Made by a program: the position numbers and the translations under genes
Notes under the pieces: model-generated
Databases searched by the model: none
What the model was told of the DNA's origin: nothing
The model's input: the letters and a program-made list of their open reading frames with translations, nothing else
Assembly: GCF_964355755.1 (NCBI RefSeq)
Contig: NC_092677.1
Span: 24,601,175-24,665,174, forward strand
Reading direction: 5' to 3'
DNA from: Antedon mediterranea
Lineage: Eukaryota > Animalia > Echinodermata
Length of the DNA: 64,000 nucleotides
Shown: in pieces, positions 2,192 to 62,458 of the stretch
Layout: each line of letters starts with the position of its first letter
Numbering within the stretch: the first letter of the stretch is position 1

Positions 2192-2253
2192 ACTATCAAT
2201 TCATATGGTGCAAATACAACAGGTCTTTTAAATGTATTTGTGTTTTTTTATAG

Positions 2254-9810: not shown

Positions 9811-9930
9811 ATAAATAGTATGTTGAACAAATACGATGGTAATCATTTGAAATCTAAAAATGTTACCATTGATTTAAAGGGAAATGACCTTTCAGATATT
9901 GATACAGATTCACTTGGGAAGCTGATCAAC
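9811..9930 (+). pseudogene. Isolated relic of an NLR LRR repeat (NSMLNKYDGNHLKSKNVTIDLKGNDLSDIDTDSLGKLIN)
   Basis: Clear nucleotide and peptide similarity to the gene B repeat at ~27825-27945 (NSMLKKHEVKYLKLKNITIQLEDNNLSDIDTDSLVKLIN). Confidence 0.75.
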
Positions 9931-35864: not shown

Positions 35865-38800
35865 GTACGTATTCAAACCATTGTATTGTTGGAGGTAAAG
35901 GAACAACTACTATACTGCAAGGTTGGTTTTATATAATATATTTACTAACAATTAACAAGGTCTACGTGTAGTAGTAAATGCATTTATTATTTTTTTTCAT
36001 TATTTAGAAACATCAATGTCAAACCGAATCTACAATAAACCAATTTATACTTGTATGACATTAGTAAAGTCTTGTAAGATATTATTTGTAAAACTGTTAT
36101 TATTATAATACTGTAAAGTAAACTCTTTGAATTGTATAGATGAGGGGGTCAATTTTATTTCTTTATAATACAATTAACTTTTTTTCATTATTGAACATTA
36201 TTTAACGACGGTAACCCCAAACAGAGTTGACTGCATAAGGCCCAATAATACAAATAATATCAGTTTTTATTATGATGCAATTAAAAATTGTTATTGATAT
36301 TAAAATTCCTTTTGTTTCTTTATAGCTCTGATTGTTGCTTTCATCGTTCTTTTATTAAGCATCGGACTCTCAATGAACTACTATGGTAGTCAAAAATTGA
36401 CAGCATTGACAGACAGCAAGTATATTTTAATAGAATTTGTATAAAAATAATACCTATACGGCGTACTATATGTCATGAATATCTTGTCTATGGCTTTAAA
36501 AGAAAGGATTGGGCGTCATTCAAATCCAAAAAATATATATTCTATTTAACATGATTGCACAACAGATGGTCAAACAATTTTGAATTATTTTTAATTTCAG
36601 ATGAAATTATTAGAAACTTTCTGATAGCAGAACAGAAATTCCAATTTAGAAAATCAAGCAAACTACCGCCGACGTGGCAACACAATTATAACATTTTACA
36701 GATGTTTACCGATCCAGTGTTATATATTAAGCATAAACACATGAAAGAGGGAACACAAATACCATTAAAAGAACTTTTAGGTGTTGTCAAATCCATGGAT
36801 TCATGTAAAGTATGCATGACGGGAAATGGAGGAATTGGTAAGACCACTTTACTTCAGTATATATCTTACAACTGGGCAGCGAATTCAGATTCCACTTTTG
36901 CTGGTAAAATATTATTTCTTATAAATGTAAGAGATATCAGGGCAGGTCAAAAAATTACAGATGTGATTGTAGAGCAAGTTGAACTTGGTATTTTTAGTAA
37001 AAATACAAGACTCCCGAAAAGTAAAACAATTGTAGAAGCCTTTATAGAGAGACATGACAAAGAATTAGTTGTGCTGTTGGATGGATTAGATGAGTTAGAA
37101 TATGGTGCTGTAGGCCCAAAAAGGATATTAGAAGGCAACGAAATGAGGGAAAGCACAGTTATTATGACATCACGACCCGGTTTTGCTGGAGACTTACTTA
37201 ATCATTGCGATTTAGATGTTAACATAAAAGGGTTTTCTGAAAATAACATCAAGGCTTATATTCAAAAGTATTTTATTGAAAAACCTGCGCTTGGCGTTTC
37301 ATTGAGTGCAGAATTCAAACTGAATTCGAAATATGCAAGTGATTGGGGTGGTGATAATAAAATGATATTTGAACTATTGCACTCCCCTTTTGTATTACTT
37401 AAAATGTGTACAATATGGGAACATCAAAACATAATTCCTAACAATTTTGAAGGCTTTTTTATAGAAATGTTTCGCTGCATTTTAAATCAGAACTTTAACA
37501 TAATTAGTACTTCAAAAGCAATACCAGCGTTTAGCGACTTTCCGGGAGAATTTACCAAATCCATTTTAATATTAGGACATATTAGTTACAAAATATTACA
37601 ACAAAATTTACTTCATTTTACTAAATGGGATTTAAGAAAACTAGTAAAAAATGTACATTTAGTTGACTTATCACTTAAATTAGGTTTTGTTTACAAAGAC
37701 ATTCATCCAAATCCAAACTCATTTTCAGAGACTTACCGATATCCACATAAGTTACTAGCAGAGGCCCTAGCGGGGTTTTATTTGTGTTACAAGAGTCAAT
37801 TTGAGACATTAGATTTTCAAGAAAGTGAAAACATAAGAACTAACGCGTATCTACATATGACAAGAGTGTTTACAATTAGTTTTCTAGGTTCCAATGCTGA
37901 CACAATTATGAAACACTGGTTAGTGAACAATGCTTCAAATTATTATTCCTTTGCGAGATATTTTCAATATGTAAACCAAGCACACGAAGAAAGAGTATTA
38001 CAATCACTGGATAAACACCTATCCAAAGAAATGAAAATGCACGTTGACATCTTAAATCATTCTTTTAAAACGTTTCAGAGAAATAACAATTTACATTTAA
38101 TACAGCTTTTGAAAATATTGTATGACGAACTTACAGGTAATATAGAGAAAGTGTTACAGAAAGTCAGCATATTTATAAATGAATCAGATGAGAAATCATC
38201 TTGCAAGGTTGTAGCGCACGTCTCAATAATATTGCAACTGTACAAGTCTGAAATTCCTAATATTAGGCCTAATAGACGTGGATACGATTACTATTTATTG
38301 TCACTAGTTAATAAATGGGGTGATACAGCTATTGACATTCTTTCAAACGAATGGTCTCGATATTATTTAAATGAACAAATAAAATCACTTGATTTTTGGT
38401 ACAATGATTTAGAAAATGATTTAGAAAATGAGTTATATAATAATAATATAATAATTTGGCTTATCCGGCTTTTTCAAATTGTTCCTAACCTTGAATTTCT
38501 CTATATGTAGCGCAGTAGCATTAGTCATAGAGGTAAAGTTATCAACGAAATGATAACCGAATGTAAAAACAATACAATATTTAAGACACAACGATCTGAC
38601 AGATATAAATGAAGAAACATTAGATAATTTATTTAATACTTCTAACAATTTAGAACTTGTTAGCTTATATAATTGTAAATTAAATACACAAACAAAACGT
38701 ATGTTGACAAATGATGTACAATATTTAAAATCCAAAAATATTACCATTGAATTAGGTAATAAATACCTTTCATATATGGAGAAATATTCACTTGAGAAGT

Positions 38801-40316
38801 TTATAGACTTGATAAAAATGTATTATTTAACTTGGAATGATTATGGTCTATCAGCAAAACACTTACAGGCTCTTACAGATTTAAATATAATACTCTTATT
38901 TTGGATCATGTAGACCTCTCATCAATTAATGGAAGTATACTATCTAAACTTTTTGTTATATTTCCAACTTTGAAACATCTTTCTATGAACAATTGCAATT
39001 TAGTAGGTACCACTATTACTGATATGCTAAATACATGTAGAGAAATGAATATTGAACTGAAAGAACATTCAATATCACTTATGAAAAATAACCTTTCTAG
39101 TTTTAATGTTGAATCGTTATTTCAATTATTACATGTTGTGAGAAACATGAATTACCACTATAGACCTATAGAAAAGATAGAATGGAGGCAGTATGGTTTA
39201 ACCGTTCAAAATCTTAAAGATATATTAAAACAACCTAACATGATCTTATCCAAGTGGCAATATGTCGACTTAACGGATAAAGACCTCTCATCAATTAATG
39301 GAAGTATACAAGCTAACATTTTCGTTATATTTCCTAATTTAGAATGTCTTAACATGGACAATTGCAATTTAGTAGGTACCACTATTACTGATATGCTAAA
39401 TACATGTAGAGAAATGAATATTGAACTGAAAGAGAATTCAATATCACTAACGAATAATAACATTTCTAACATTGATGGCGAATCACTACTTAAATTATTG
39501 TATGTTATGAGAAACGATGAATACAGATGTTCAGAAACATTAAAGTGGGGGGATTATGGTTTAACAGTTAAAAATCTTAAATGTATATTACAACGACTAT
39601 CATATCTAAGTGGGAAATGATCGATTTATCGTATATAGACCTCTCATCAATTAATGGAAGTATACTAGCTAACATTGTTGTAACATTTTCAAATTTAAAA
39701 CACCTTTCTATGAAAAATTGCAATTTAATAGGTACCACCATTACTGATATGCTAAATACATGTAGAGAAATGAATATTGAACTGAAAGAGAATTCAATAT
39801 CACTTATGAAAAACAATCTTTCTAGTATTAATGTTGAATCGTTACTTAAATTATTACATGTTGTGAGAAACATGAATTACCCTTCTAGACCTATAGAAAA
39901 ACTAGAATGGAGGCAGTATGGTTTAACCGTTGAAAATCTTAAAGATATATTTAAAAAAAACTAACACGATCTTATCCACGTGGCAATATGTCGATTTAAC
40001 GCATATAGACCTCTCATCAATTAATGGAAGTATACTAGCGAACATTTTTGTAATATTTCCAAATTTGAAACGTCTTTTTATGAGAAATTGCAATTTAGTA
40101 GGTACCACTATTTCTGATATGCTAAATAAATGTCGAGAAATGAACATTGAACTTAAAGAAAATTCAATATCATTAATGAATAATAACATTTCTAATATTG
40201 ATGGCGAATCACTATTTAAATTATTGTATGTTATGAGAAACGATGAATAAAACAACAGAAACATTAAAGTGGAGGGATTATGGTTTAACAGTTAAAAATC
40301 TTAAATATATATTACA
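35336..40316 (+). pseudogene. Gene C: NLR with tandem death-fold-linker-TM-NACHT-LRR (no FN3); exons 35336-35864, 36008-36052, 36326-36385 (or -36415), 36601-38510; LRR region disrupted and truncated by Gypsy
   Basis: Phase-1 junctions are in frame. TM exon SLIVAFIVLLLSIGLSMNYY; Walker A GNGGIGKTT, Walker B LLDGLDE. There is a stop at 38510, then LRR repeats in shifting frames (38701-40250). It could still encode an LRR-less protein. Confidence 0.75.
38880..40316 (+). repeat. Four ~360-370-bp LRR-coding repeats alternating in an ABAB higher-order pattern
   Basis: gacctctcatcaattaatggaagtata at 38913, 39282, 39638 and 40008; the tails alternate RNMNY..IEK.EWRQY / RNDEY.CSETL.W.DY. Confidence 0.85.
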
Positions 40317-40475: not shown

Positions 40476-42786
40476 TTAATACATTATCATCAGTAAGTCG
40501 TTTTCACATTGTTCATTCCACTTAACGGTATTACTTTTACTCTTTAAAGTTAAATCAACCAATGGCTTAGCAATATCGGCATAGTTCTGTACAAATTTTC
40601 TGTAATAGCCAGTTAATCCGAGAAATGATCGGACTTGTTTCTTAGACAAAGGTCTGGGGAACTTTTCCACAGCCTCAACCTTATCAATCATGGGTCTAAT
40701 TTCTCCATTACCAATCTTATGCCCCAGAAATTCTACCTGAGCATAGGCAATTTTACATTTCAAAGGCTTTGCTGTCAATCCAGCACTACTTAATCTTTCT
40801 AATACATCATTCAAATGAAAAATATGATCTTTCCAAGTTTGACTATAAATACATATGTCATCTATATATGCCTTAGCATATCCCTCAGTACCTTGTAATA
40901 CCTTATCCATTAATCTTTGGAAAGTACTAGAGCTATTTTGCATACCAAATGGAAGTACATTGTAACAATACTGTCCAAATTGTGTAATAAACGCTGATTT
41001 GTCTTTGGTCTTAGGATCCAGAGGCACCTGGTAAAATCCTTTAGTTAGATCTAATGTAGTTATGTATTTTGCGGATGATACCTCATCCAACATTTCGTCT
41101 ATGCGAGGCATAACATAAGGGTCAAATTGTGTAGTCTTATTTAGTGATCTAAAATCTGTCACCATTCTAATTTGATTCTGGCCTTTCTTCAGGGCAATAA
41201 TAGGTGCAGCATAGGCACTAACTGTAGGTTCTATTATACCCATAGCCAACATACTATCTAATTCTTCTTTCAATTTACCCTTTAATGCTTGGGGCGTTCT
41301 ATATGCCCTATGCCTTATAGGCATTTCACCATTAGTCTTAATTTCATGTGTCACTAAGTGAGTTCTACCTGGTACATCCGAGAATACATTCTGTTGGTAC
41401 TTTAACAATTCTGTTAATTGTTTAGTTTGTGTATCATTTAAATTACTACTAATGTTAACATCTCTCCATGTTTGTGATTGATGATAAGACAATCCTATGT
41501 CTATTTCACTATCTAACTCATTGTCATGGACTGTTTCATTTAAGTCTACTTCTTCTATCGACTGAACATTTGTTACTACATAATAACCATCTTTACTTAT
41601 TTCTACTTTATCATACCATCTCTTTAACATATTAACATGTAGAATTTGTTTTTCTTTTCTTCTACCTCCTATGTATATTTCATAATTTACATCATTGACC
41701 TTTTTAGTAACAGTGAAGGGGCCTTGCCATTTACTGTCTAACTTACTATTTCCTACTGGAAGGAATATCAACACTTTGTCCCCTTCTACAAATTCTCTAT
41801 CAATAGCATTCTTGTTATAATTGTGGGACATAATTTCTTGTTGTTCAAGTTTGTTTACATTAGCATCTTTCATTAATTCCTCCATTTTTTCTCTTATTTC
41901 TAACATGTATTTGATAACATCAGTAGATGTTTCTTCATCTTCTACCCAATTACTTTTGAGTAAACTCAAGGGTCCCCTCACCTCTCTACCATAAAGCAAT
42001 TTAAAAGGTGAATGGCCCGTCGCTTTACTAGGAACTTCTCTGTATGCAAACAGAAAGGGGGGTATGTATTTATCCCAATTTTTTCTTTGCTTAACTGTAA
42101 GTTAATGTACCGTGAAATCTTTCAACAAGCCCATTGCTTTGGGGGTGGTACACTGTAGTCTTTAATTGATTAATCCCCAACATACTACATATAGATTGCA
42201 TAATTGAAGACATGAAATTAGTTCCTTGATCATGTACAATCTCTTCGGGTAATCCTACTCTAGTAAAGACTTCTATTAGAGCCCTGGCTACTGTTTCAGC
42301 TCTAACATTGGGTAACGGGGTAGCATCCGGATATCTCGTAGCATAGTCAATTATAGTAAGCATATATTTGTTATTACGGCTTGTTCTAGATAAGGGTCCA
42401 ACAATGTCTATCGCTATACGTTTAAATGGTGTACTTATAATCGGTAATGGTATCAAAGTATGTTTCCTTTTACTTTTACCCTTATCTACCTTTTGGCATT
42501 CCTTACAGACTTTACAATAGACTACAACATCTTTAAATATACCTGGCCAATAGAATTGGTTCAGGATCCTACTTTTTGTTTTCTCAACACCCATGTGACC
42601 TGCAAATGGCACATTATGACCTAAGTGTAATACACCCTGTCTACACTGAGTGGGTAATACAATCTGTTCCACTTGGTTATTCTTATCTTTAATACTACTC
42701 CAATTTCTCATCAATATACCTTGTCTCATAAAGAAACATACCCTATGCTGACCTATTTCTTCTATAGGGACTACCCTGTCAAACAC
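40476..42786 (-). pseudogene. pol: Gypsy pol (integrase then reverse transcriptase), frameshifted
   Basis: ORF 42091-42786 is the integrase core; ORF 40476-41999 is the integrase C-terminus (WQGPF) plus RT. Confidence 0.85.
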
Positions 42787-43200
42787 TCCTTTGAGTTTGC
42801 AATTTGATCAGTTCTTGTTTAGTTAGGTTCAGCTTGTGCTGTTGTTCATAAGTTTTATGTTTGACTGTTTTATCTTTAGCTTTATCCTCATTTTCGTCAA
42901 ACAAATTATTCATTTCTGTTCCATTCATATCATCTAAACACTTAGTTTTATTTACTTTGTTGTCATTTACTACTGTTTTCAACAATTGTACATTAGTTTC
43001 TTTAGGCGGCTCTTCTATCGGCTTAAAGTTACTATCTTTCCCTAACAATATCATTTCGTCTTGTATTCTAACATCATTTTCTATTCTGGCTTGCTCCCTA
43101 GTTAGGACGAACATTTCTTTAGCCATTGTTTCCCCACAATTCTGGTCCAAATCATGACCCAATAACATATCCCTCTGTAATCCTTCGATTACGGCTACAA

Positions 43201-44643
43201 TCACTTTTCCTGTGTCACTATCTTACTTTCTATAGCTACCTCAGCTAAGGGGACGGTAATATCGCCTCCTATACCTCTTAACGTAACCCATTTTCCTGGC
43301 AAGTAACATTTGTTAGGCACTAGACTTTCCTTAACAGCTGACTGGGTACATCCCGAGTCTCTAAGCATAGTTATATCCTGTCCTTCTAATTTTCCTGGTA
43401 TTATACACTTCTCCATTTTATTTTCTACACTATCCATAACTACTTGGGGTCTATCTGATTTTATTCCTTCACATCTTAAGCCATTTTTCACATTCGGGCC
43501 CTTCTTAGTGTCACTAGTCTTTCCTTTTGCTACCATCTTAGGACAATCCCCTATTTTATGTCCCTTCTCCTTACAATTGAAGCATAGGCCATTAATCCAT
43601 TCATTTGAAGGTTCTCTCTGTTGGAAATTTCTACCATAGTTATGGAATTTGCCTCCCCTTCCGCGATACCTATTGTATCCTTGCTGCCTAGCTCCAGGGT
43701 TGTTCTGAGTCGTACCATTCTTAGGGTTACTATTTTCTTGGCCCTTATGATACGTAGCCTTATTTTCAGAATTTACGGTATTCCAATAGCCACGGCCACC
43801 TCTATTAGCTATATAATCATCGGCTATCATAGCCATATCATAGCTCTTATTTACTTGTTTATCTCTAAGATAAAGCCTCAGATCTTCAGGCATTTTATCA
43901 AGTGCCTGTTCCATTATAATCATTTCAATAATGCCTGCAGCATCATCTTCTTTTACATTAGCACATTTCATCCAACATTTTAAATAATGGGAGAGCTCAT
44001 TCAGCCATTCCCTGATGGACATATCTTTAACTCTGTTTGAATTTCTAAATTTAAATCTGTAGGTCTCTGCGGACACATCATACTTTTCTAAGATTGCCTT
44101 CTTTAAGGTATCATAATCTACACATTCTTTTACGGTTAAGGATGCATATGCTGTCCTAGCTTTACCAGACAGTTCAGGTGCTAACCTAGCGGACCACGTA
44201 TTCTTATCCCAACCTGTGGCTTCTGCCAAGTGTTCAAATGTTCTAAAATATATATCAATATCATCTGATTCCTTCAAAGTAGGAACCTTTACCTTCATTT
44301 CATCTACTATATTCCTAGCATTACTGTAGCTAGACCTATTTTCTAATTCCATCATTTTCACTCTTTCTTGTGATTCAATTTTTCTTTGCTCTATATCTGC
44401 TTCTAATCTTAATTGGTCTTGTTGGTATTGTAATTCTAACTTTTTGTTTTCGGCCTCGGCCTCGAACTTCATTCGAAAATATTCGAGCATCATATCTTTA
44501 GGCATACCGCCGGGTATTTCGGGCAAATCAATATCCCTAGCCATGTTATCATACATTTCATTGACTTGGTCAACCATATCTTCCCTAGTATCTTTGTCTG
44601 ACATAGTCTTATCTATATTTTTACCCGATCTTAAAGTTGTCAT
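43201..44643 (-). CDS. gag: Gypsy gag-protease
   Basis: 480-aa ORF with coiled coil, capsid/SCAN-like region, zinc knuckle and DSG protease motif. Confidence 0.85.
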   Translation of the reverse strand: MTTLRSGKNIDKTMSDKDTREDMVDQVNEMYDNMARDIDLPEIPGGMPKDMMLEYFRMKFEAEAENKKLELQYQQDQLRLEADIEQRKIESQERVKMMELENRSSYSNARNIVDEMKVKVPTLKESDDIDIYFRTFEHLAEATGWDKNTWSARLAPELSGKARTAYASLTVKECVDYDTLKKAILEKYDVSAETYRFKFRNSNRVKDMSIREWLNELSHYLKCWMKCANVKEDDAAGIIEMIIMEQALDKMPEDLRLYLRDKQVNKSYDMAMIADDYIANRGGRGYWNTVNSENKATYHKGQENSNPKNGTTQNNPGARQQGYNRYRGRGGKFHNYGRNFQQREPSNEWINGLCFNCKEKGHKIGDCPKMVAKGKTSDTKKGPNVKNGLRCEGIKSDRPQVVMDSVENKMEKCIIPGKLEGQDITMLRDSGCTQSAVKESLVPNKCYLPGKWVTLRGIGGDITVPLAEVAIESKIVTQEK

Positions 44644-45167
44644 GCTAATAACAATTTTACTAATGAAATATGTAAACTTATGTATACAAAATATGTTATA
44701 AAAGTATGTGTATTACCTTGATTCCATTCAGATATGTAAAAATATTAAATCCACATAAATTTTTAAATGCAATACAATCTAAGACATTAATTTACTTCAA
44801 AGTCACAAACAACGTTCCAAGTTCGCTCCGTACAAAAATTTACTTTCGAAATAAATAATAGTTTACAAAGTCAGCTTTGCAAATCTTCTCCAAATTTACT
44901 GGGCTTCCTTCTGTTACTTCAGTCTTCTTCTTTCAGACCTCGGTGAATATATACAGTATCTCCGATGAATATCCAGCAGTCTTGAGCTCAACAGTACTTC
45001 TTCTTCGTTGTAATATCCAAACAACGCACGGTATAAAAACTGTCAGGAATCCAGATCTTCGTAACCATTTAACTTTTTGGTTACTGATTTAACAGGCCCG
45101 TAGAGTAGGCACTGTCACTTCTTCTTCTTCTTCTTCTTGATACTTAAATCATGTAAACAAAAATTTT

Positions 45168-47194: not shown

Positions 47195-49231
47195 ATATAG
47201 CAGACATTTATGAGGTATTTGTTTCTACATAGTTTTCAACGTTATAGTAGCAAAGTAGTATAAAGACTACAGTAAATGAATGTATAAAAACGAATTTATA
47301 GAAACCACCATTTTATTTTGGAAGCCTTTATAGGTAAAGTCTATACAGTTAGTAACTTTTACAATGTCTAACTGCTTTAGGGTTTGGATATAATAATATA
47401 GAGAATTATCTTACGCCCCGACAGTTCCATTGTACTATTATCAATAGAAAGACCTATTTTCAAAAAACTTTTTATTAAATTGCAATCAAGCAGAAAGTAA
47501 TATACAGTACTAATACTAGTGTACTGAGGCCTGCCATGGAATAGTGTGTACCGTCTACTGTACAGGAAAATTATAGAATAATTACAGGCTTGTTCCATAA
47601 GTACACACGAAAATCGAGTGATATAATAACTCCTGGATGTCACGTCCAGTGTTGCTGTAAAAATACGGCACAGGCAGGACTGATTGATTTAAATTTTCTA
47701 TTAAAAAGCACAGGTAAGTTTTAAAAATTGAATAATATTTTTATACAAGGTTAGTATAAGACAATGCTTAAAATATTGTTAACTGAGGTTAAGTTAAACC
47801 ACTGTAGACCACTAAATATGTATATCACAGTAAGCAATCGTATAGGCATGTTTTAAGGTCTGCCATTATTAAACAGTTGCCAGCGTTTTTTTGCTTGCAA
47901 TGAATCAATTTTCTATGATTATAAAAATAACGTGGATTGTATAACGACAGTATATAGACCACTCCTAACACGAAATGCATTGTGGGCGTTATAGTGGTGT
48001 GCATTGTGGATCATGATTATACAGTACCATTGGAATCGCGTTAAGTTTGCGAAATGCATTGTGGGCGGTATGAGATGTGTATTATGGAACAGTGGGCCAA
48101 ACTCAGAATCATTATTCTATGAATATATCATTGTATAAAACAGACTATTCACGTCAAGTTTGGGTGTAATGGGATTGCGGAACGGTGATGGGTAGATGCA
48201 ACTAAATTTTAGTTTGGAGTTCGTTATTAGCGAAAATGCAATTCGTGCAATCCCATTATCAAGATTATGGAGCACAGTGTTTTGAGGTTGACCTTGTAAC
48301 AAAAATACACTTTGGAATTTCTAAACTATTCTACATTCTTAAAAATAGATCTACACAATTTGATAATAATGCATAACAATGATAAACGCAATCAATATGG
48401 CTGTGATTTACAAATAGTGGCTATTAAGCGGAATGACACACCTCCAAAACATGCGAAATTATTACAGTTGGTATCATCTTACAGATAGGTCGTTCTAATA
48501 CAACATGTCTTTCAATGTCATTTCAATCTATTATCTATATTTGATAAATATTAAAAACTAATACTATTTTACAGAAAACCATAAAAACTTCTATTAGAAA
48601 CAAATCAGGAAAATCATACCATATAACTTTGTGTGGCACGGTTAAATCACGAAGGAATAAATTGCTCCATGGTTGAACATAGATGGTCATTTATACTGTC
48701 ATTTGTAAGGTTAACGGGACTAGTCGCAATATGGGTTTCCTAAAGGCCAACTCAGACAGCGTCGTACGACAAGGCCCGACGAGTCGTCTTGTCGGGAAAA
48801 AATTTAACATTTAAAAGTTCTCGCGACGACCTAAGAATTACGCCCGACGCTATCGCAAGACAACTCGTATCGTCGGGATTCAACTCAGACGTTTCGTATT
48901 TGTTATAATGATCATTGATGAAACGTATTTTCTGTCTAGAGGGCACACTAAATAGAAAATGAAAGTTCTTACAATGTCAACTTGAATGTTTTAAACGAAA
49001 TATAAAGTTCCTGTATACCACTGTATTGGTCTGCTCGCCTAATTGTAACATTTAAAGTCATATCATAAAAGGGAGGTGCGCGAGTGAGTCACAATCTTGA
49101 GAGTGTACCGTACTGAATAAATATGTTTCAGCTGAAAAGGCATCATACATGGCACTCTCAGACATTAAGTATAAAGATAATAAAACGTAACTATGAAGCT
49201 AATTACTAACACTTTCTTTTACAGTAACATA

Positions 49232-52200
49232 ATGGAGGATAGATTTACAGACTTTCTTCAAGAATTCAGTGATGCCTATCCCGGGGAAGATGTACAGGAG
49301 TTAAGATTACTTCTACATCATCACCTACCGATTGGTATATTGGCACGTGACAACTTAGGAATGAATTTATTTACTGAACTCAAGCATAAAGGTCTTATCG
49401 CATACCATGATGTTAACATTATGTCAGAAATGGCAGACGTGACAGAAAACGCTGACGCAAAAGCCAGTGTAATGAGATACAAACAAGAAGTTGATGGTTT
49501 CGGTCCGTATCGGGAAAGTTTGAAGGAAAGGCGTAAACAGCTTTATAAAGCTATGTGTAGTATAACAGAAACTGCGAGAGGTGATTTTCAAAAATTGATT
49601 GCGTTCTACGACCTAAGTTCATACAGATTTACAAATAAATGGGATTTAGTATTTGATCTGGAGAAAGAACTCAAATTAAATACACTGGATGAGGATAGTT
49701 TTACGAAATTTGCCAATCAGTTGAATCCAAGTGCAAAAAGGATATTACTGGGTACGTTTTAAATAATTATCAACATTATTCCCACGGTTAACGTTGCACA
49801 AGTCTATTTTCCATTTACAAGTCCCTTTCCAATTATTTTTTAGTGGTCTTTAGTTGCTTTTGTCTCTAATTAGAATCCCTCTAACTAAAAACCGGCACTA
49901 GAATTGGTCTCTAAATTACCTATTCGAGGGAAATTAAATGTCAGAATGATTATCTTCGTCCCTGAAGAAGGCTAAAGGTAAATATAATCGAGTTGGTTTG
50001 TCTGCCCTTCTGTCCAGTTGTGTGTATTTGTCTATTCAATGGATGATACCCACCCTAAAAATGGATTAAGTTTATTTTTAAAGTAGTCTTTAATATTGGA
50101 GCGAACATTTGAAGGAAACTGTTAATTAGTTTAAAACCGTGGTCTTTTGTCTCTAATTAGATAGAGTCTTTAATTGAAGAGAGCAGCTAATGATAAAAAT
50201 AAGAGATCATCCCATCCAGGCAGTGTTAAAGCTGTCTTTAATTGGAAGAAGTCATGTACTTTTACATGTTTGGTATTCCCCGTCGACATGTTTTTCATAT
50301 TTTGGATAAATTGATAATAGAAAAACATCGGCGTTCATTTCGCTCTGAGCACATTTTGACAGAAACTATAGGATGTCGGGAGTTCTAAATTTTTACCCCA
50401 TAACGAGAATACCTGAGAATACTTTTTCTAGGATGGGACTCGAACCCACGACCTTCAGGTCACTAGCCTGGCGTTCATACCGCTCAGACAACCGAGCTTG
50501 TGCTGATGCATAGGGTAAGATTCGAGCCCAAGTAAGTAGTGGGTACTAACACCAACAGGGCTATATTAACGAACTGTGGAGTAGCTTTGCGTCAGGGGGA
50601 GTTGAGTAATTGGTCAGACATTTTGCCCTACTCTGACGTAATTTAATTTAATACATTTGCGAATTTACATGACGTAGTTTGGTCGTCAGCGGTCGTCGTT
50701 AATCGAAAGCTCCCTAATACATTCATTCATTCAGGCTTATCGCCTGACTTTATTTACTTTAGGCCTCTGGCCCCTAGTAATTAACAAAATAATAATTACA
50801 TTGAAAAATAAAGCAATTTATGGTCACAAGATAAATGAATTAATTAATTTCGTTCTCTAAGCAAAACATATATCTTAACTTATAAGCATGATACTGTATT
50901 TGTTTACTTTGCTATAAATACAGGTGGACAAGTTGATATAGATAAAAACGAAAATATTGGATTACCAAGAACAGTAATACAGGTAAGTAACCAGTTTATA
51001 CAAATTTAAAGGCGGCATGAGGAATGGAGCTCCAGTTTACATATCGAATACTTTTAAAGAATAATACCGGAATATAAAAAGGGCCAAAGTCCATCATTTG
51101 ACCAAATTGAGTTAAACATAGAAAAAAACTTAGGCATAGGGCTACCTTGTGTATGAATTATGGACCGAAGTCCACTCATTAAGTACTATTAACACGTGGT
51201 AGAAAACCGGTATGTATAAAAGAAAGGCCCAGCTCCAGGGACTTGGACCTTTCTTACACACAATATAGATAGCATCCTCTGTTGACGAATATGTATCTAT
51301 ATATAAATTTACGTAAGGGCAAAATTCGGTAAATCGCGCCTTACTTCTAGAATGTTTACTCGATGGTATATAAAGTTAGTTCGTACTTTCGGTACTGATT
51401 TTAACCACCTGATGTAACCCTGTTTACTAATTAAATTGAGTTAGACAATCAGTTTTTGACAATTAAAACGAATTTAGGTTTAACGATTTGCCCCAAATAG
51501 GGGTGTTTTCCGATCGCGGTATAAACTGTCTAATGGATGTCTATCTTGAAAAATACCGCACACAATAATACGAGGATGCTTCGCATTTTTCTATCTCCTC
51601 CTACGATAATTGTTTTTAATAGATGAAAACCGGTTGAACAGCTCGAGTACAGCATCATAATGTTGAAGACAGGCCGATTTTCTTTTAAAAAAATACTACT
51701 TTTGATAGATTTAATATACGTTTATACAAATGTATTGATTTCTGATGAATGGAACATTCCAATATAACTATTTGGTTTAAAACAAGTACCAGCTGTAGGT
51801 AAATTTATTGGCCCTTGGGGAATTAACCTGGAACCTATTGGACAGTACTGTAAATACGTATTAACCATTTTTGGACACATATTACTGTGAGTGTGAGTAG
51901 GCCCTACTGTTAGATATATAAACGCAAAATATACAAATAAACTTTTATTACTGACAGTTGCTTCTCAACGTTTGTATTAATTAATAATTACAAAAAATGT
52001 AAACGTCGTAGTAGTGTATCGTTACATGTATTATGCTATTTCAATCGACTAATGACAGTGACAGTTTTAACGAAGTATTAAATCGCCAATGTGTTACTGT
52101 TTCAAGTAGTATATTATTTATAGGCCTATAAAACATGAACACAATATTTCGTTACTGAGTAGATAAAGAATATATTTAAAAATTGTTCTTCTTTGTACCC

Positions 52201-55200
52201 ATCCTCTTCTCCATCCCTCAATCCTAATGTTACATACAAAACACAAATTGGATTTGTTTAAATGCAAAAAATTGGACTCATTTTGTGACAAGTTTCTCTT
52301 TCGGAAGTAATTCCCATGGTGCTAATTTTAGTTGACTACATAAATCATTGTGTCTATTTATTCGTTTCTGTAAACGACAATAATTATAGTCCTGCGGTAC
52401 ATTTTTGACGCTGAAATCACTGTGTATTCTAAAACCATCTAGTGTTATAAATTATGCTTAATTCTGACTTCGGGACAAATCTCTCCGCCTTGGATACATA
52501 CATCATCTATCTCAAATGTACCGCGAAACGTAGATTTGATAACATTAGCTCTCACTATTACGATATTGTTATCTTAGGAAGATGTTATAAATGGTTTTAA
52601 AACAAAATTTGTGCTTTCATTGGTAGATTTTTTTGGAAGTAATTTCAGGGTTCACGGTGAGTTCACGGGTTCACCTTGCCACTTTCAACTAAGTTGGCCG
52701 TTGTTGGTGATAGCCATTTTAGATTTTGTTTATTTTCGGACCGCGCGTGTGAAAGGGTCAGTAGATCAAAATTTTACTGCAACTTAATAAAGATAAAATT
52801 AAATATATTCATAAATCATCCAAGTATATTATGGGGAATAGTATATCAAATTACATCGGGAGAACTGATGATAAGAACTTTTGTTTTAAATCGAGTGAAA
52901 CCCCGATAGCCGAGTTGTTGATGAGTAAGCTCAGGAATAACTTCTGCCCATGTTGCAAAACGTCTAAAACGTCTTCTTTCTTGGGCCGAAACGGCCCACT
53001 GTGTCGCGGAAGTTAGTTTCAAAATATGTTTAAACTAAATAATGTATTGATCCAATTAAGATTAAACGCCCAATACCTCCCCAATAAAACATCACTTAGA
53101 ATAATAAACGTCCATCGACATTTATACACACAATATTGTATTATAATTTATAACACTATTATATTGTAGTAGAATTCATCGAACTGTTATCTACAATTTA
53201 TCAAGCATTTGTTATTCTTTTTTACCACTTTTCATATCTATTAGAGGATTTTATTTTATTATAAATGTTACCATATTACTAAAATGCCTTTACATTTTGA
53301 AATTTTATTAGAGACTAAACAAAACAAAAAAGAAATTACGAACGATTTAAAAAAAATCTGGAAAACACATGAAACATTTCAATGGTCCGAAACAAAGGTG
53401 AATAAAGCCAAGGACAAATGGAATGATGAACACATTTTCAAATTTCTTGATGATATTAATGAAAATGTTGAAAAAAGGGATATTGATGAAGCCCTAATTA
53501 ACTTTATAGAACTTTAAAATATGTTTACATAAATACAAAAAAACTAACACAAGTACACAAAAAATGCACAAAATTGCCCAAGAATACATGGTTTGATCAT
53601 CAATGCATAAAAAAGAAAATTATTATTCGTAGCATTCTTAATAAATATAGAAAATACAAAACTAACTAACCTATTAAAGGAGTATCTGTTAAAGAAAAGG
53701 AGTTATAAAAAATTAATAAAATAAAAAAAAATAAACATAACAATTCATCACAACAAAAATTAATCAGGTTAATAAAGGAACATAACAGTACAAAATTTTG
53801 GAAAAACCTTAAAACCAAACGACAACAACACGTGACCAACATTACACTTAAAAAATGACATGATTACTTCAAAACAATGTTCCAAAATCAAACAAATAAT
53901 ATACAAGAAATCAATATAGAAGACGATAACGATAACAATTGCGAACATAACGATTGTTACAATGAAGAAATCAGCCGGAAAGAGGTAATTTATGCAATTA
54001 AAGCACAGAAAAGGGGTAAAGCTCCAGGTATTGATGGATTCCCGATTGAATTTTTTACTTGTATGCCAAATGCTGCTATTAGCGCAATTACGAAAATTTT
54101 TAATAGTATTTTTACCTCTGGAAATTTTCCCCAACAATGGGCAACAAGCATTATTATTCCTATATTTAAAAAGGGAAAAAGAGATCAACCAGCAAATTAT
54201 AGAGGCGTATCCTTAATATCCACTTTAGGCAAGGTGTTTTTATACATTATAAGCAATAGATTAAGCAAATGGACAGAAGAAAATGAAACATTACATCAAG
54301 AGCAGGGAGGGTTTAGAAAAGATTGTCGTACTATTGATAACATATTTATTTTAGACACAATTGTTAACAAATATCTCTCAAAAAAACGAGGAACTGTGTA
54401 CATGGCGTTTATAGATTTAAAACGCGCTTTCGATTCTGTTAGACACGATTTCCTTATAATTAAACTAAGAAAATCTGGTATAAAAGGTAAAATAATCAAA
54501 GTTATAAAAACAATGTATAGTAAATTAAAAGGGCATGTAAAGGTTGGCAACAAAATTGGAGAATCCTTTAAATGTGAAGTAGGAATACAACAAGGGTCAC
54601 CTTTATCTTCATTATTATTAAATATTTTTATTAATGATATAACTGAGTTATTACATACTGCTGAAAATCGAAACAAAATAAAATTGATAACATAAATATT
54701 AATCACCTACTGTATGCAGATGATCTAGTTTTAATCAGTGATACAGTGTACTCATTACAAGATCTTTAAAATAAATTAGCATATTATTGTAATAGGTGGG
54801 GATTGGTAGTTAACATTGACAAAAGTAAAATAATAGGTAGGTGTAGTATTTTAAAAAAATGGAAAACTTAAGAACTACGAAAAGTGGAATTATCTTGGTA
54901 AAGAAATTGAAATAGTAAAATCTCTTAAATATCTTGGAGTCACTTTCGATGGTTCAGGAAATTGTGAAAAGGCCAGAGAACAAAATAATACACAGGCTAA
55001 TAAAGCACTTTTCTCACTCAAAAATATAGTATATCAGAAATATGGACATCTACCAGTGAATATTTGGAACTACTTATTTAATGTTAAAATAAACCAATTA
55101 TACTGTATGGTAGTGAAATATGGGGAAAACTAAACAACAACAAAATTGATGATATTCAAAATAATTTCTGTAGATATGTTTTAGGGGTCGGGAAATCAGC

Positions 55201-58200
55201 CACAAATGTTTCAATTAGAGGAGAATGTGGACGATTCTCTTTATCAATCGAAAGTGTACTCAATGTTATCCGTTATTGGGTAAGACTAGTAAATATGAAC
55301 GAGGACAAATATGCGAAGAAATGTTATAAATCTCAACTTCATAAAGCGCAAAATAATAGTAATTGTTGGGTAAGCGATATAAAACATATGTTATGCTCTA
55401 TTGGTCATGGAAACATATGGTTTTCACAAAATAATGTCCTTGATAAATTTTATATAATTAATAAAACAAAAGAAAGGCTAACCGATATGGAACGCCAATC
55501 CTTTCTTGAAAGCATAAATATTTCTTCAAAATTAAGATATTATAAAATGTTCAAAAACAATTTCGGAGTAGATGGATACTTACTACAGACCCTTGATACT
55601 AGATATAAGCGAGCTTTAAGTCAACTAAGACTGGGCACACTTCAACTAGAGGTAGAAAAGGGAAGATGGAAAAGAATAGAGCGCAGCAATAGGTTATGTA
55701 AAATATGTAATATAAATGAAGTTTTGTTACAGTTTGCCCTCGTTACAAGGAAATTTATATCTTCTTTATTTTTTGAAAATCCAAATACTTTTAAATTCTG
55801 CCGATTAATGTCATCACATGATCCAATAATTATTGATAATATATCTAAATATATGTATCATGCTTATAAGTTAAGATATATGTTTTGCTTAGAGAACGAA
55901 ATTAATTAATTCATTTATCTTGTGACCATAAATTGCTTTATTTTTCAATGTAATTATTATTTTGTTAATTACTATGGGCCAGAGGCCTAAAGTAAATAAA
56001 GTCAGGCGATAAGCCTGAATGAATGAATCAATGAAAACTAAAAATAGCAGACAACCGTGACAATGTTAGACTTAATATTAATGTCAAATTATGTAAATTC
56101 AGCTTTCTGATAATTGTCTGTATTTGGTTATAGAAATTTGTTGCTGCAACTGTCATCGCTGTCATCGCTCTAATCGTAGCTTGGTTTGTCTTGGGTAAGT
56201 TAGGTGTATTTATCTTTTGTATGGTTAGTTTGAGGGTTGGTTGGTCGATGATACTAGTAAAACACATGTGATGCGATGCTATATATTCCGCAATATTTGT
56301 ATGACACTCTGGAGAAATCTAGATACAGTCCCAAGAATCAGGTGCAAAATCCCTGTTTCATGTTTAGGTTAGTCATATGGCACATGATACAGACATCGCA
56401 TGTGATACATATGTGACATTAAAGTACTGAAATTTGGTTGGGAGAAAAGTATAGGGGAAACGGTGAAACAAAACCTCCAGCAAAGCTACTGTCTGGAAGT
56501 AAATGGGTTTTTGATTAAATTTGATTGATTTATTTTTTTATAAGAAGCATCGTTTTTTTTGGCGTATTATACAGTATAAGTATTTATTTATTTAGTATTT
56601 TATTTATCATTTTAAACATATTGTCTGGAAGTCAACAGGTTTTTGGTTAAATTTAACTGTTTACTTTGTCTTTTTTATAAGCAAAATAATTAATTTGTAT
56701 TATTAATTATTTCTGTTTTGCTTATATAATTATCAATATAAGTATTTTATTTATGTTATTAATATTTTGAATGTTAATTGAATTATAGCTCGACCAAATG
56801 CGCCTACAGTCACACTGTTGGAACAAAACCTCACTTCCATCACACTACGAATAGAAGACCCTGAATACACCGGTGGTCTTGATCTAATTGCCTACAAAAT
56901 CAGCTTTAGATATAAAAATGATGGTCAGTATGTTGGTGAATCTGAAACGTTTGATTACAGTAAGTCTACATAAAAGTAAAATAAATAAAAAACTAATTCA
57001 TTGACATTGATACAGAACATGTGCTTTATTTATCTTTTTTATATTATTCCACCAGAGGATAGAAATGAAAAAGATTTTCAAATTTACACAATCAAAGAAC
57101 TGTCACCAGCGAAACTATACAAAATCAGAGTGGCTGGCAAGAATAAATATATGTTAGGAGACCAAAGCGAAGAATTAGACGCTAGAACACTAACAGAAGG
57201 TAAGTATCGTTATTTGATGAAACATACATAACTTAAGATTTCAGTACAACAATCCATTAGACTTAAGTACCATCAAAATGTCAACATACTGTGTTGCAAA
57301 AGTTAAACAACCTGGGATGGTAATGTGAAAAAGGAAAAAGACTTTTTGAATACCAAAACGTTATCTGTTAATTGTGAATATTACATAGTTTTAAATAAAT
57401 GTGTATTGCCACCTGGCTGAAATGTGACGGAGTCTGTACTCTTTAAAAAAAACACACCTATTTTTAATCAATTATAGCTTCTCTGGATGGCTGGTTACCC
57501 CAAGTTTTTAAAATGTATTATGGAAGCTGATGAGTTGTAGATATCAATTCATGTAAAATGTGTACCTACCGGATGGTCTGATGTCACCATATGGCCACTT
57601 GAATTTAAAAAATAACTTCTTTTTTCGCTTTAGTACTAGTTAATCCCATTTAATAGAGCGCATTGCACTTATAATGCTTATCCGATTGTTCTTTCTCAAT
57701 CAATTCTCTTTCACATTCGTTGTGAAAAAAAAAAATTGAATTTGTATTACGTCATCATATTAAAAAATTAGAATAACGTGACTTACTTAATTTCGTCTAT
57801 ACAGTATATTATAAGGCAAGTGCTGCCTGGGTGGACAGGAATAAAAGTATGTAAATGGTGACGATACCTGACACGTTTCTCGGACAGGCGACGTAATTTG
57901 GTAAAGTTATCCAAAGTACCCTCCATAATTACAGCAAAATCAGATCAAAACAGTCCCTAAAGGAAGATGTTCCAACAATTTCACATATCTTTTTGTTGGA
58001 ATATACAAGCCTGTAGATATCCTCATCTAGTTGGTCAGCCTCATTCTTTGCCCTGTCAAATCCTCTCTTGACCATTTGTCTCAATATTTTATGGCAACAC
58101 GATTCCATCTTCTTTATTTCATTCTCATTTGGAAACCATGATTGTGTACCATAATAAGAGCCTGGATCTTACGCAGGCCTCTAAAACTTTCTTTCTTGTC

Positions 58201-61200
58201 TTCATATAGACATCATGATCTTTTAAAACTTCTTTTAATTCATGGAACTTTCCTACAGCACTTGATGTTCTATGGTCAGTGAAGCAGCCATCCTCTCTAT
58301 TTGTGATTGTATGCCCTAAATAAACAAAGTCTCTTACATTTTCAATATCCACTCCATTTATGTTTACTAAGGAACTTTTCTCTGCTAGATGTTGTTCACC
58401 AAACACCTGAGTCTTCGTTTTCTTCAGGGAAACATTCAACCCGTATCTTCTGCAAGTATCACAAATAATGGTCAAGATTTGCTGTGATTCTTTAACATTT
58501 TTTTAGAATAAAACAAGATCATCTGCATATAAGATCCACTTGATTATTTCCACTCCATTCTGCTTAGCTTCTTTTCTCTGTTTTTACATTAATTTGGAAT
58601 ATTATAACGAAATCCAATACCCCATCCATCAGGAAATTCCTTATCGATTTCGAATGCAGAAATTTTGAGGACAAAATCAAAATACAAATTAAAAAGGCAA
58701 GGGGATTCCTGACCACCTTGTCTGCATCTGACTCTCACTTCAAAGAAAGATTTCATCCCGTTGATGCATGCGGTTGTTCCATCATACATAGCTTTTAGAA
58801 GTGAAACAATATGTGTAGCTTTTGTCCTGAGAAGTAGAGCTTTAAAGAGTAGGTGTCTTGGTATGTGATCATATGCAGCAGTGAGATCAATATAGGTAGC
58901 AATAATTGTACCTTGATGTTTCTCGATAACAGCTCTGGTTATAAAAATAGCATCAGCAGTTGATCTATTACTGCGGAATCCAAACTGACTCTCACTTAAA
59001 TGACTTTCATACGCCCCTTTCAATCTCCATGTGATAATCTTGGATAGAATTCTTCTGAGATTTGATCCTATCGATATCCCTCAATAATTCTTGGCTTCAC
59101 TGACATTCCCCTTCTTAAAAATACGTGATCTTGCTCATCAGCCAAGAGTTAGTGACCTTCCGTGTTGTCCAGATTACAATTATAAGCATATGAAGGAATG
59201 CAAACAGGCGTTAACTTATATTGTACTTCAGTACTTCGGACTTGATGTTATCTGTTCCTCCACTTTTTTCAATTTTGAATGACTTTATAACCTCTTCTAG
59301 TTCTTTGCTAGTTAGTGGATCCTCATTAACTATACAGTCTTCATCATTGAACAACTGTGGGAAACTTCCTGGGTCTTCTAGCTCACTAGGGACACTGAAG
59401 GATTCAGGTGGGCCTGCAAAGTGTGACTCAAAATGTACTTTCAGCTTTTCCTTCTGAATTCTACTATCACTGGATTTCTTGAAGACTTTGTAATAATGTT
59501 AATGTAATATAATATTTTTAGATTCAATAACTGTCTATATTAATACCTATGTGACGTTTTTAATAAATGATAAATCTTAAAGAATCTTAAAAAATTATTT
59601 TTAAACATATAACTTGTATAATAAATACAAATGTGAATATTTTGTAGCATCTGGGATATAATTTTCATAGATATATTAAAAAGTATTGAACCCAGGATGG
59701 ACTCCTGTCAACATTGTTATTTTTATTGACCAAAGAACATGCCTATTGAACATTTATTAAACATATATACAATAAAAAACAATACGTATAGTACGGTATG
59801 TGACAAAACAATCAATTGAAAAAATTTGTTTAATTTACTAATATTTTTTACGTATTTTCGTATTTTTCAATGTGTTGTTTTATAATAATACAAAAATCTT
59901 CACCAACCATATATTAATTACGAAATCATATTTATACGATTGTAACATCATAATTAGTGGTTTACATAGTAATATATTGCGATTGCAGCCTTTGGATAAA
60001 TCAAAGAAATTTCAGATTGTATTTATTTATATGCAATAAGCATTTTTATAATAATATGTTGATATATAGCAAGGTTGTAGTTACAGTTATGTCAACTGCA
60101 ACATGATAGTATGCCTAATAATAATGTGAAGAAATTATTGGATTACAATCATTTTTCTTTTCAGATGAACTTATCCGAAACTTTCTAATAGCAGAACAGA
60201 AAAAGAAATTTCAAGATCCAAACATAAAACCGCCGACATGGAACGCTCAATATAGCAATAAATACAATATTGCACTGATGTTTACTGATCTAATATTGAA
60301 ACCAAAAATATTGAAGAAGTATAAATACCCGGATCTAGAAATCGAAAGTCCTACATCATTAAAAGAACTATTAGACATTATCAAGTCGGCGGAGTCATGT
60401 AAAGTATGCATGACAGGAGAAGGAGGAGTTGGTAAGACGACTTTACTTCAGTATATATCTTACAACTGGGCAACTGGTTCTGATTCTACATTTGACGGTA
60501 AAATATTATTTCTTATAAATGTAAGAGATATCAAGGCAGGTAAAACAATTAGAGATATGATTGTAGGGCAAGTTAATCTGGTAATTTTTAGTAAATATCT
60601 TCGTCTTCAGAAAGATAAAACAATTATAGAAACGTTTATAGATACACATGAAAAAGAATTAGTTGTGCTGTTGGATGGATTGGACGAGTTAGAATATGGT
60701 GTTGGAGGACCAAATATAATATTAAAGGGTGACGAACTGAGGGAAAGCACAGTAATTATGACATCACGACCGGGTTTTCCTAGAGACTTAGGCCTATTTA
60801 ATCATTGTGATTTAGAAGTAATAGTAGAAGGGTTTTTAGAAAATAACATTATGAAATATATTGACAAATATTTTAGACTTGTTAAAAAACCTGCGCTTGG
60901 TGATTCATTGATTGAAGAATTCAAATCTTATTCGCAATATACAATTGGTCGGGGTGGTGATCACAAAGAGATATTTGAACTCGTTCAATCACCTTTTTTA
61001 TTACTTAAAATGTGTACCATATGGGAATATGAAAAAAAAGTACCCAACAATTTTCAACACTTTTTAAAAGAAATTTTCCGTTCAGTTTTAAATCAGTACA
61101 TTAACAGAAGTGGAAACTATACTGTGAAACCGATACAAACACTAGATCACATTCCATCTGACTATAAAAATTCCATTTTATTATTAGGAAATATCAGTTA

Positions 61201-62458
61201 TATAAGTCTACAGAAAAACTTTCTTCATTTTACTAAATTGGAATTAGGAGAGCTAGTAAAAAATGATACTTTAGTTGACTTATCACTCAGATTAGGTTTT
61301 GTTTACAAAGATAATCCTGCTTTCCCGGATAGCTTTTATGAAACTTACCGATATTCACATAAGTTACTGGCAGAGGCACTAGCGGGGTTTTACTTGTCTC
61401 ACAAAATTCACTTTGAGACTTTAGATTTCAAAGAAAGTGAAATCATAAGAACTAACATTTATTTACATAAGACTATAGAATGTACAATTAGTTTTCTAGG
61501 TTCTAATGCAGACAAACTCATGAAACACTGGCTGGTGATCAATGTTTCTAATCTTTATTTATTTTCACAATATTTTAAATTTGAAAAACAGGAAGACGAA
61601 GAAAAAGTATTGGGATCCCTAGATGAATACCTCAGCAAATCCGAATTAAAACATATAAAAATACAAATTGATAGTTTAAAACGTTCCTTCAAAACGTTTT
61701 ATAATAGCAGTTCACACTTCATAAAACTTTTGAGAAAGTTGTATGAAGAACTTGAAGAATCTCCATTTAAAGTAATAGACAAAGTCAATATGTTCATAAT
61801 TAATTCAACTGAAAAGTCACCTAAAGCTGTTTGCAGACGTGTAGCGCACGTCTCACTAATAATACAACTATACAAAAATAGAAATTTTTATCGGTGGCTG
61901 TCAGTGGGAGAATTTGGCGATTATCATTTACTGGAACTAGTTCATTTATGGGATAACGAAGCTATTGAGGTTCTCTCAAATGTATGGAACATGTTTAATT
62001 TAAGTGCACAGATACGCGCGCTTGATTTCAATCCCACTAGTTTGTCAAACGGCTTGCTTTTTAGAACAAGAGGTTCTACTCCTGAACAATTAACAAATAA
62101 AAGCTTGTGCAATTTTTTTCAAATATTTCCCAATCTTCAAAGACTAATGATAAGTTCCATTGTTATTAATGATATGATTAACGAATGCAAAAGCAGTAAA
62201 ATATTTGTTTATTTCGAGAAATGTAATTTTTTTAGAAAAGTTGAATATGGAGCAATAATTGACATAATGAAAACTTCTACCCATTTACGAATTATTGATC
62301 CTAATAAATGCAAATACATATATTATAACATGGATCGCAGGGTGATGTATTTTTCACATCCTATATTTGAAAATTTGAAAGATTATGTAACTATACACAA
62401 CGAAACATGGTATGCCGATATAGAAATAGCCGAGTACATCGATGCTGGAATCATCTGA
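49232..62458 (+). CDS. Gene D: intact membrane-anchored NLR, tandem death-fold-linker-TM-FN3-NACHT-short LRR, ~1082 aa; exons 49232-49751, 50924-50982, 56134-56194, 56789-56959, 57056-57199, 60165-62458
   Basis: All donors are gtaagt or gtacgt, the phases chain correctly (1,0,1,1,1), and the summed CDS of 3249 nt has no internal stop. TM KFVAATVIAVIALIVAWFVL; FN3; GEGGVGKTT; LLDGLDE. Confidence 0.85.
50432..50498 (-). mobile_element. tRNA-derived SINE head / tRNA-Thr(AGT)-like pseudogene
   Basis: Minus strand: A-box-like tgtctgagcggt, stem-loop cagg-ctAGTga-cctg, T arm gtggg-ttcgagt-cccat. The acceptor stem does not pair. Confidence 0.5.
50720..50894 (-). mobile_element. ~175-bp 3' end copy of the RTEX-like LINE
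   Basis: Near-exact reverse complement of 55856-56030, including the (GAAT)n tail. Confidence 0.85.
53284..56030 (+). mobile_element. RTEX-like non-LTR retrotransposon, 5' truncated and frameshifted
   Basis: RT motifs GKAPGIDG, PIFKKG..P.NYRGVSL, QGGFR, FIDLKRAFDSV, QQGSPLS and LYADD; C-terminal RLGTLQLEVEKGRW..R.CKIC; (GAAT)n tail. Confidence 0.8.
56134..56194 (+). CDS. Gene D transmembrane exon
   Basis: ttggttatag acceptor and G|gtaagt donor; phase 0-1, which exactly matches the phase-0 end of linker exon 50924-50982. Confidence 0.8.
56789..57199 (+). CDS. Gene D FN3 domain (exons 56789-56959, 57056-57199)
   Basis: Paralogue of 17528-17950 with the same exon lengths (171 and 144 nt); both exons are open. 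Confidence 0.85.
57860..59490 (-). mobile_element. RTE-like LINE reverse transcriptase fragment
   Basis: SQFGFRSNRSTADAIF, IDLTAAYD, RQGGQESPCLFNLY, LYADD, GLNVSLKKTK and FVYLG motifs, spread over several frames. Confidence 0.8.
60165..62458 (+). CDS. Gene D NACHT-HD exon with minimal LRR tail
   Basis: Acceptor tttcttttcag|ATGAA is in frame with the 726-aa ORF; NACHT motifs are intact; only about 2 LRR-like units (IRALDF, FPNLQRLMI). Confidence 0.92.

Follow-up and report, generated by a model that had tools for sequence, protein, structure and literature searches.

The 64,000-nucleotide stretch of the Antedon mediterranea genome analysed here (contig NC_092677.1, positions 24,601,175 to 24,665,174 of the forward strand; the window below) consists of AT-rich animal DNA and contains three NACHT genes, designated B, C and D, all on the plus strand. 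Their products resemble the nucleotide-binding, leucine-rich repeat (LRR) receptors of animals (NLRs). With one transmembrane (TM) exon each, they fall outside the definition of a soluble, TM-less NLR, and the side of the membrane on which their NACHT-LRR part lies is the subject of this analysis.

Gene D is unbroken (1082 codons). Its exon with the ATG (49232–49751) encodes tandem folds similar to the death effector domain (DED), and its start does not resemble a signal peptide. It is followed by a linker exon (50924–50982, phase 1 to 0), the TM exon (56134–56194, phase 0 to 1; KFVAATVIAVIALIVAWFVL), two exons of an FN3 domain (56789–56959 and 57056–57199) and the last exon (60165–62458), which encodes the NACHT nucleotide-binding domain, the winged helix between helical domains HD1 and HD2, and an LRR tail that is short and degenerate. 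The last exon matches the RefSeq model P0001, labelled Antedon mediterranea, at 100%, and the joined exons translate to exactly this protein, in the order DED-DED, linker, TM, two-exon FN3 and NACHT exon.

Gene B (13859–29133; additional out-of-frame LRR units continue to about 29846) has the same layout: DED-DED (13859–14389), linker (15026–15094), TM (16833–16907), FN3 (17528–17698 and 17807–17950) and NACHT-LRR (25676–29133); its 5′ end was not found in the window. Gene C (35336–40250) comprises DED-DED (35336–35864), TM (36326–36385) and NACHT (36601–38510) exons and lacks both linker and FN3. Its reading frame ends at a stop at 38508, with frameshifted LRR pieces continuing up to 40250 (36601–40250, plus strand). 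Contigs of another sample aligned to gene C have a C at 38508 and a 7-nt deletion at 37960, from which alleles or close paralogs of this gene are seen to differ. On both C and D these contigs behave as genomic, with no splice joints, and are uninformative on expression. C and D are 75–86% identical in the upstream region and the DED exon (33233–35876 and 47306–49763) and 74% identical in the NACHT exons, which suggests that the 5′ module was duplicated or converted recently. With about 70–90% DNA identity, the LRR units are tandem copies of recent origin. A lone LRR fragment with 76–81% identity to the gene B repeats lies at 9809–9930 on the plus strand.

The NACHT part of gene D has the features of an NLR. 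The domain is recognised by Pfam above the cut-off (E = 4.9e-17), and Walker A (GEGGVGKT, 60416–60439, plus strand), Walker B, the sensor-1 TSR, the SPF motif and the winged-helix His are all intact. An AlphaFold2 model of the NACHT exon (pTM 0.79) contains HD1, winged helix and HD2 after the nucleotide-binding domain, and its top Foldseek matches are NOD2 (5irm, E = 3.5e-17) and NLRC4 (4kxf), with NLRP3 also matched; the clusters found in the ESM Atlas were all NACHT and below 0.9. Modelling P0001 over its full length gave a pTM of 0.49, with the FN3 and TM region too poor for use. Pfam matches to DED fall below the cut-off in B, C and D (E about 1e-4) and above it in the related protein P0003; the region is all-helical in a low-confidence model of gene D and matches the DED of cFLIP weakly (E = 0.06). 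Pfam gave no LRR match in D or the gene B reading frame and weak matches in the pieces of C, and LRR_4 was found above the cut-off in P0006. D, P0002, P0003 and P0005 have a short or degenerate LRR.

For comparison, RefSeq proteins labelled Antedon mediterranea were combined with crinoid-type homologs. Homolog searches yielded nine TM-bearing sequences (D, B, C and P0002–P0007) and 53 TM-less crinoid-type NLR cores, some of them from partial models that could have lost a TM exon; six proteins without a matched Walker A, two that were too short, P0070 and the outgroups were excluded before counting. P0170, a further member of the TM clade, stands outside these counts. Species labels are carried by P0001–P0038, and the remaining proteins were placed by the tree. 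A homolog search using the TM-clade alignment returned only P0001 and P0002. The nine TM-bearing NLRs, from two crinoid genera and 37–60% identical, form one clade nested among TM-less crinoid NLRs (SH-like support 0.99 with 70 sequences; UFBoot 100 with 24 of those). The nucleotide-binding motifs (Walker A and B, sensor 1, GxP-type, winged-helix His) are intact in all nine, and every complete model of the clade keeps the tandem DEDs, which are duplicated in P0003.

One TM segment precedes the NACHT domain in each of the nine clade members and in none of the TM-less crinoid relatives. The segments are 20–29 residues long without a central Pro and form one helix in a low-confidence model. In B, C and D, a scan that recovers the true TM exons, gene D's own only at a relaxed setting, found no further one in the stretch from DED to NACHT, and a crude scan of the same genes found no exon resembling a signal peptide. 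The DEDs begin at the first Met or within about 10 residues of it in C, P0001, P0002, P0003 and P0170. As is established for membrane proteins, a folded N-terminus of 170 residues without a signal peptide stays in the cytosol. The net charge of the N-terminal flank of the TM exceeds that of the C-terminal flank in 9 of 10 proteins, and the number of Lys and Arg residues on the N-terminal side is equal or higher in all 10. Pfam scans detected no Cys-rich ectodomain of the TNFR type; the death fold precedes the TM.

Four members carry an additional module between TM and NACHT. An FN3 domain occupies this position in D, B and P0002; that of gene D matches Pfam fn3 below the curated cut-off (E = 4e-4), and the whole domain matches an FN3 of NCAM1 best (E = 7e-6). 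P0005 of Anneissia japonica has the order TM-EGF-EGF-NACHT, with two six-Cys EGF domains (Pfam E = 1.3e-12). Among the inserted modules only this EGF pair is a strong clue, and P0005 is the strongest single clue to an extracytoplasmic NACHT. P0004, P0006 and P0170 also have a hydrophobic stretch at the C-terminus; these stretches were rejected as firm second TMs, may be read-through and are absent in D and B. Another Anneissia japonica protein, P0068, consists of a short basic N-terminus, one TM and then LRRs of this NLR family only, with no NACHT; it has 17 sequons among 63 Asn and 1.7% Cys. Two distant NLRs with N-terminal TMs, P0098 and P0100, are organised differently: one joins a KAP NTPase that has three TMs to NACHT-LRR, and the other has an N-terminal anchor with a basic C-flank followed by NACHT-LRR and is likely cytosol-facing.

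The TM clade is also set apart by the loss of cysteine from the NACHT core. All nine TM proteins have 5–8 Cys per core (0.90–1.44%) vs at least 1.72% in all 53 TM-less proteins. This is the largest shift among the 20 residues and is seen in both genera, most of the lost Cys having given way to Ser, Thr, Arg or hydrophobic residues. The tails contain 67 Cys in 3371 residues in TM proteins vs 1248 in 35480 in TM-less ones. The DEDs, taken as a control, show no shift (9/1052 vs 86/8237, P = 0.74). Because distant NLRs average 2.25% Cys (83 proteins including P0170, in a narrower window of the core), the TM clade is the outlier. Clade-specific disulfides were rejected, the conserved Cys 78, 214, 283 and 556 being present in TM-less sisters too, and a general AT drift was rejected as the cause of the loss, given that Lys and Met fall while Gly, Pro and Arg are flat. 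The loss could mean that free thiols were purged from domains that lie in an oxidising compartment, as judged from this one clade.

N-glycosylation sequons had been put forward by the sequence-only reading as independent support for a luminal NACHT-LRR. The ten sequons that it listed for gene D (NRS, NYT, NIS, NDT, NVS, NSS, NST, NLS, NKS and NET) are all present in the open reading frame 60125–62458, among 47 Asn of the NACHT exon rather than the 42 or so it had estimated. Composition shuffling, which it had proposed as a check, gives an excess in D (10 vs a mean of 5.4, P = 0.032) but not in C (3 of 50 Asn, P = 0.92); the value for B (22 of 91, P = 0.007) is inflated by the tandem LRR repeats. 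Its counts for the pre-TM DED exons are reproduced (0/8 in D and 0/6 in C, together 0/14, and 2/11 in B), and 0/14 has a chance probability of 0.20. Depletion of sequons in DEDs was rejected as a cytosolic signal: the DEDs of TM-less proteins are richer in them, with 93 sequons per 441 Asn, a rate equal to that of the gene D NACHT exon, vs 5/60 in the DEDs of TM proteins. The NLT of the FN3 domain is found in B and D, while gene C has no FN3. SINGS, said to occur in every LRR super-repeat, was found in eight copies, in B and C only and none in D; one gene B unit reads LISGVT instead, and five of the eight copies lie downstream of a stop or frameshift. These copies were rejected as many independent sites: they are tandem copies, and Anneissia TM proteins mostly have SG[AST] there.

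The comparison with TM-less NLRs goes against this argument. Counted from the NACHT exon onwards to the C-terminus, sequons number 80 among 468 Asn in Antedon-labelled TM proteins and 132 among 791 in TM-less ones (P = 0.46), and the rate of D is reached or exceeded in 12 of the 53 TM-less crinoid NLRs. In the LRR tails, where sequons are mainly the NLS of the LRR consensus, the rate is 0.21 in TM vs 0.21–0.24 in TM-less proteins. Pooled cores alone show a small excess (45/324 vs 172/1739, P = 0.022), and a per-protein test of observed over expected numbers gives P = 0.25. N-x-T occurs at 0.97 of expectation in TM cores and 0.70 in TM-less cores. By a secondary-structure proxy, the excess lies in loops (36/213 vs 130/1199) and not inside structural elements (9/111 vs 42/540).

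Equivalent positions had further been said to keep the sequon while changing residues. Of the four pairs named, two share an alignment column, namely NAS of B/C with NVS of D and NNS of B with NDT of D. In the other two, NGT of B lies two columns from NYT of D, and NES of C one column from NST of D. In pairwise comparisons at 45–65% identity, sequons are retained in 64 of 224 cases within the TM clade vs 236 of 2650 outside it, which favours the claim. Once normalised by the retention of Asn and of Ser/Thr, however, it stands at 1.10, in 20th place among 63 motifs. The ratio of TM to TM-less takes third place among the 63, and values of 1.30–1.60 are attained in three TM-less subclades, of which two are nested. 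Retention is thus mostly a matter of ancestry, the normalised value being that of independent retention of Asn and Ser/Thr. With an equal rate in TM-less NLRs and retention mostly explained by shared ancestry, sequons are not independent support for a luminal NACHT-LRR.

A weak residue of the sequon argument lies in the winged helix, with 12 sequons among 48 Asn vs 21 among 285 (nominal P = 0.001); two columns supply 9 of the 12. Across the aligned columns, only these two sites appear nearly confined to the TM clade. The NIS of gene D (61190–61198, plus strand; exon residue 342), in a helix of the winged helix, has sequon counterparts to give 4/9 TM proteins and 0/53 TM-less ones. The NDT (61262–61270, plus strand; residue 366), in the loop before a winged-helix helix, is the best clade-specific site, with a sequon in 5/9 TM proteins (NDT, NNS and three times NET) and 1/53 TM-less ones. 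Both columns are good candidates for real glycans, and each may be one evolutionary event. The NVS (61541–61549, plus strand; residue 459) is found in 5/9 TM and 6/53 TM-less proteins, and its Ser is conserved across the family (39/53 TM-less). A sharp secretory signature is described elsewhere as the loss of buried sequons (PMC5562741). Sequon counts in Asn-rich, LRR-bearing proteins are not evidence of topology; cysteine loss may be.

Other features of the window include further copies of the TM exon. In gene A (376–6513, plus strand), whose 5′ end lies beyond the window, three to four tandem copies resembling the TM exon of gene B (376–459, 848–925, about 2254, degenerate, and 2734–2808) are followed in compatible phase by exons 3217–3752, 3928–4062 and 6369–6513, encoding ZU5 (Pfam E = 1e-19) and UPA-like domains. 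The joined model has 6 sequons among about 20 Asn. Gene A may place a second normally cytosolic module behind the same TM. An exon-like segment at 8564–8727 (plus strand) encodes two hydrophobic helices and ends in YKKIRGID and a stop; its direct join to the UPA-like exon gives a stop. A Gypsy-type long terminal repeat retroelement in several frames (gag with SCAN and zinc knuckle, integrase, reverse transcriptase) lies between C and D (40476–44712, minus strand), and the introns of gene D contain LINE-type reverse transcriptase fragments (53859–55909, plus strand, and 58125–59080, minus strand).

The anatomy of the clade comprises its DED-TM-NACHT-LRR architecture, one origin in two genera, intact nucleotide motifs, halved core Cys and no sequon excess. 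On this basis a type II topology, with NACHT-LRR inside the endoplasmic reticulum (ER) lumen or at the cell exterior and the DEDs in the cytosol, is likely. The luminal placement proposed by the sequence-only reading is thus plausible through topology, the FN3/EGF modules and cysteine loss, but not through sequons. On balance we favour, with a modest leaning, the view that the B/C/D clade is a type II receptor whose extracytoplasmic NACHT-LRR signals via clustered cytosolic DEDs. The helix would then act as a signal-anchor that keeps the N-terminus in the cytosol, a step to which we give good probability. Folding and nucleotide loading of the NACHT domain would take place in the ER, with glycans added to some of the exposed sequons, the winged-helix NDT/NET being the likeliest. 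By analogy with known NLR behaviour, ligand or nucleotide exchange outside the cytoplasm could drive NACHT oligomerisation, and, as known for DEDs, the clustered DED pairs could recruit FADD/caspase-8-like partners. A bolder version, held tentatively, is that of an inside-out NLR, in which the NACHT switch at the surface or in an endomembrane lumen would sense microbial ligands or extracellular nucleotides and nucleate DED filaments across the membrane. The corresponding picture, an inflammasome-like ring serving as the ectodomain of a death receptor, falls likewise somewhat short of an even chance.

Several observations weigh against an extracytoplasmic NACHT-LRR. An equal sequon rate in TM-less NLRs, named beforehand as the outcome that refutes the sequon argument, is what was found, with no enrichment; the core has an equally small excess of the reversed motif S/T-x-N (45/324 vs 180/1739). 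A secretory protein might be expected to show some sequon excess, and its lack counts accordingly. The NIS present in 4/9 TM proteins sits within a predicted helix. In a narrower core window, 8 of the 53 TM-less proteins also have at most 1.5% Cys and overlap the TM range. All features of the TM clade share one origin, which makes P values across its proteins pseudo-replicated. P0005 is a single automatic gene model whose start looks truncated, and the FN3 of gene D is ambiguous, its first half matching titin best. Gene B is an exception to the charge rule (+1 on the N-flank vs +2 on the C-flank, though KKK adjoins the TM), an open acceptor 7 nt before the ATG of the DED exon makes an upstream coding exon for a signal peptide possible, and the LRR tails of B and C are broken.

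The main rival is a membrane-tethered NLR that faces the cytosol, with a hairpin or monotopic anchor, an unseen signal peptide giving a type I orientation, or a TM exon that is usually skipped, and with its sequons unused. We consider this unlikely but of appreciable weight. It accounts for a sequon rate equal to that of TM-less NLRs and for Walker A/B and sensor motifs that are intact, as they should be in a compartment rich in ATP. The TM can be skipped without loss of frame in all three genes, by omission of 60 nt in C, of 75 nt in B and of 120 nt, linker included, in D. For AjNLRC4 of a sea cucumber, the NACHT that follows the TM is described as intracellular (PMC8699970). Against this rival stand the TM segments of 20–29 residues, which lack a central Pro and are modelled, at low confidence, as a single helix; the EGF pair, which would remain in the cytosol along with NACHT; and, for a type I orientation, the placement of the DEDs outside. 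The restriction of Cys loss to the part after the TM also speaks against it.

An extracytoplasmic protein that does not signal through DEDs, such as a lectin, decoy or scaffold resident in the ER or at the surface, its ATPase kept for folding only, is improbable. The short or degenerate LRR of D, P0002, P0003 and P0005 and the absence of NACHT from P0068 would suit such a role, as would the binding of bacteria reported for a recombinant sea cucumber NACHT (PMC13133943), whereas the retention and, in P0003, duplication of the tandem DEDs and the conservation of all nucleotide motifs in 9/9 members would not. Decay, in which TM/FN3 exons captured in an unstable NLR cluster yield non-functional proteins, is very improbable: the stop and frameshifts found in gene C and the gene B tail, the 7-nt deletion in the other-sample contigs, and the stray TM-exon copies and retroelements of the window fit it, but a TM clade maintained in two genera at 37–60% identity with intact motifs and the unbroken 1082 codons of gene D do not.

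NLRs are defined as cytosolic sensors. If the type II reading is true, a STAND ATPase (signal transduction ATPase with numerous domains) is able to fold and function within the secretory pathway, which is oxidising, and the crinoid clade is a natural case of a cytosolic protein recruited to that pathway, with soluble sister genes as controls. No description of a crinoid DED-TM-NACHT-LRR family was found in a mostly open-access literature, as judged by listing entries and the beginnings of abstracts.

With canonical animal NLRs (NOD2, NLRC4 and echinoderm death-fold NACHT-LRR proteins) the clade has in common the series NACHT-HD1-winged helix-HD2, the death-fold N-terminus and a putative LRR tail. 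Unlike them, it has a TM, sometimes with FN3 or EGF, between effector and NACHT, half the Cys, and effector and NACHT halves predicted to lie on opposite sides of the membrane. Death receptors (Fas/TNFR) relay clustering outside the cell to a cytosolic death fold, as proposed for the crinoid receptor, but are type I proteins with a Cys-rich ectodomain and a death domain. Torsin is a P-loop ATPase that works in the ER lumen, as the crinoid NACHT is proposed to do; it is not a NACHT protein and has no death fold.

Several published NLRs come closer in their relation to membranes. Sea urchin NLRs carry N-terminal 2A-like signal sequences, a recoding signal tested on reporters, and a secretory route like that of the crinoid clade was proposed for them (PMC4981915); there the whole protein would enter the ER, with no TM described between effector and sensor. 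AjNLRC4, with Ig outside and NACHT inside (PMC8699970), and anthozoan NLRs with 3–5 N-terminal TMs (PMC5094078, PMC3879445) share a membrane-anchored NACHT with the crinoid clade, and the available parts of these reports do not describe DEDs before a single TM. AjNLR-new of Apostichopus japonicus is a TM protein for which an extracellular receptor NACHT was claimed in 2026 on the basis of TMHMM, membrane co-staining and binding of recombinant fragments (PMC13133943); Ig domains lie between its two predicted TMs, and no death fold is mentioned in the available text. Its first predicted TM could be a signal peptide, which would invert its topology. If the type II reading holds, the crinoid clade would be a cleaner system for testing this single published claim of an extracellular NACHT. 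AjNLR-new and the crinoid proteins are both echinoderm TM-NACHT proteins, compared here by their description and not by kinship.

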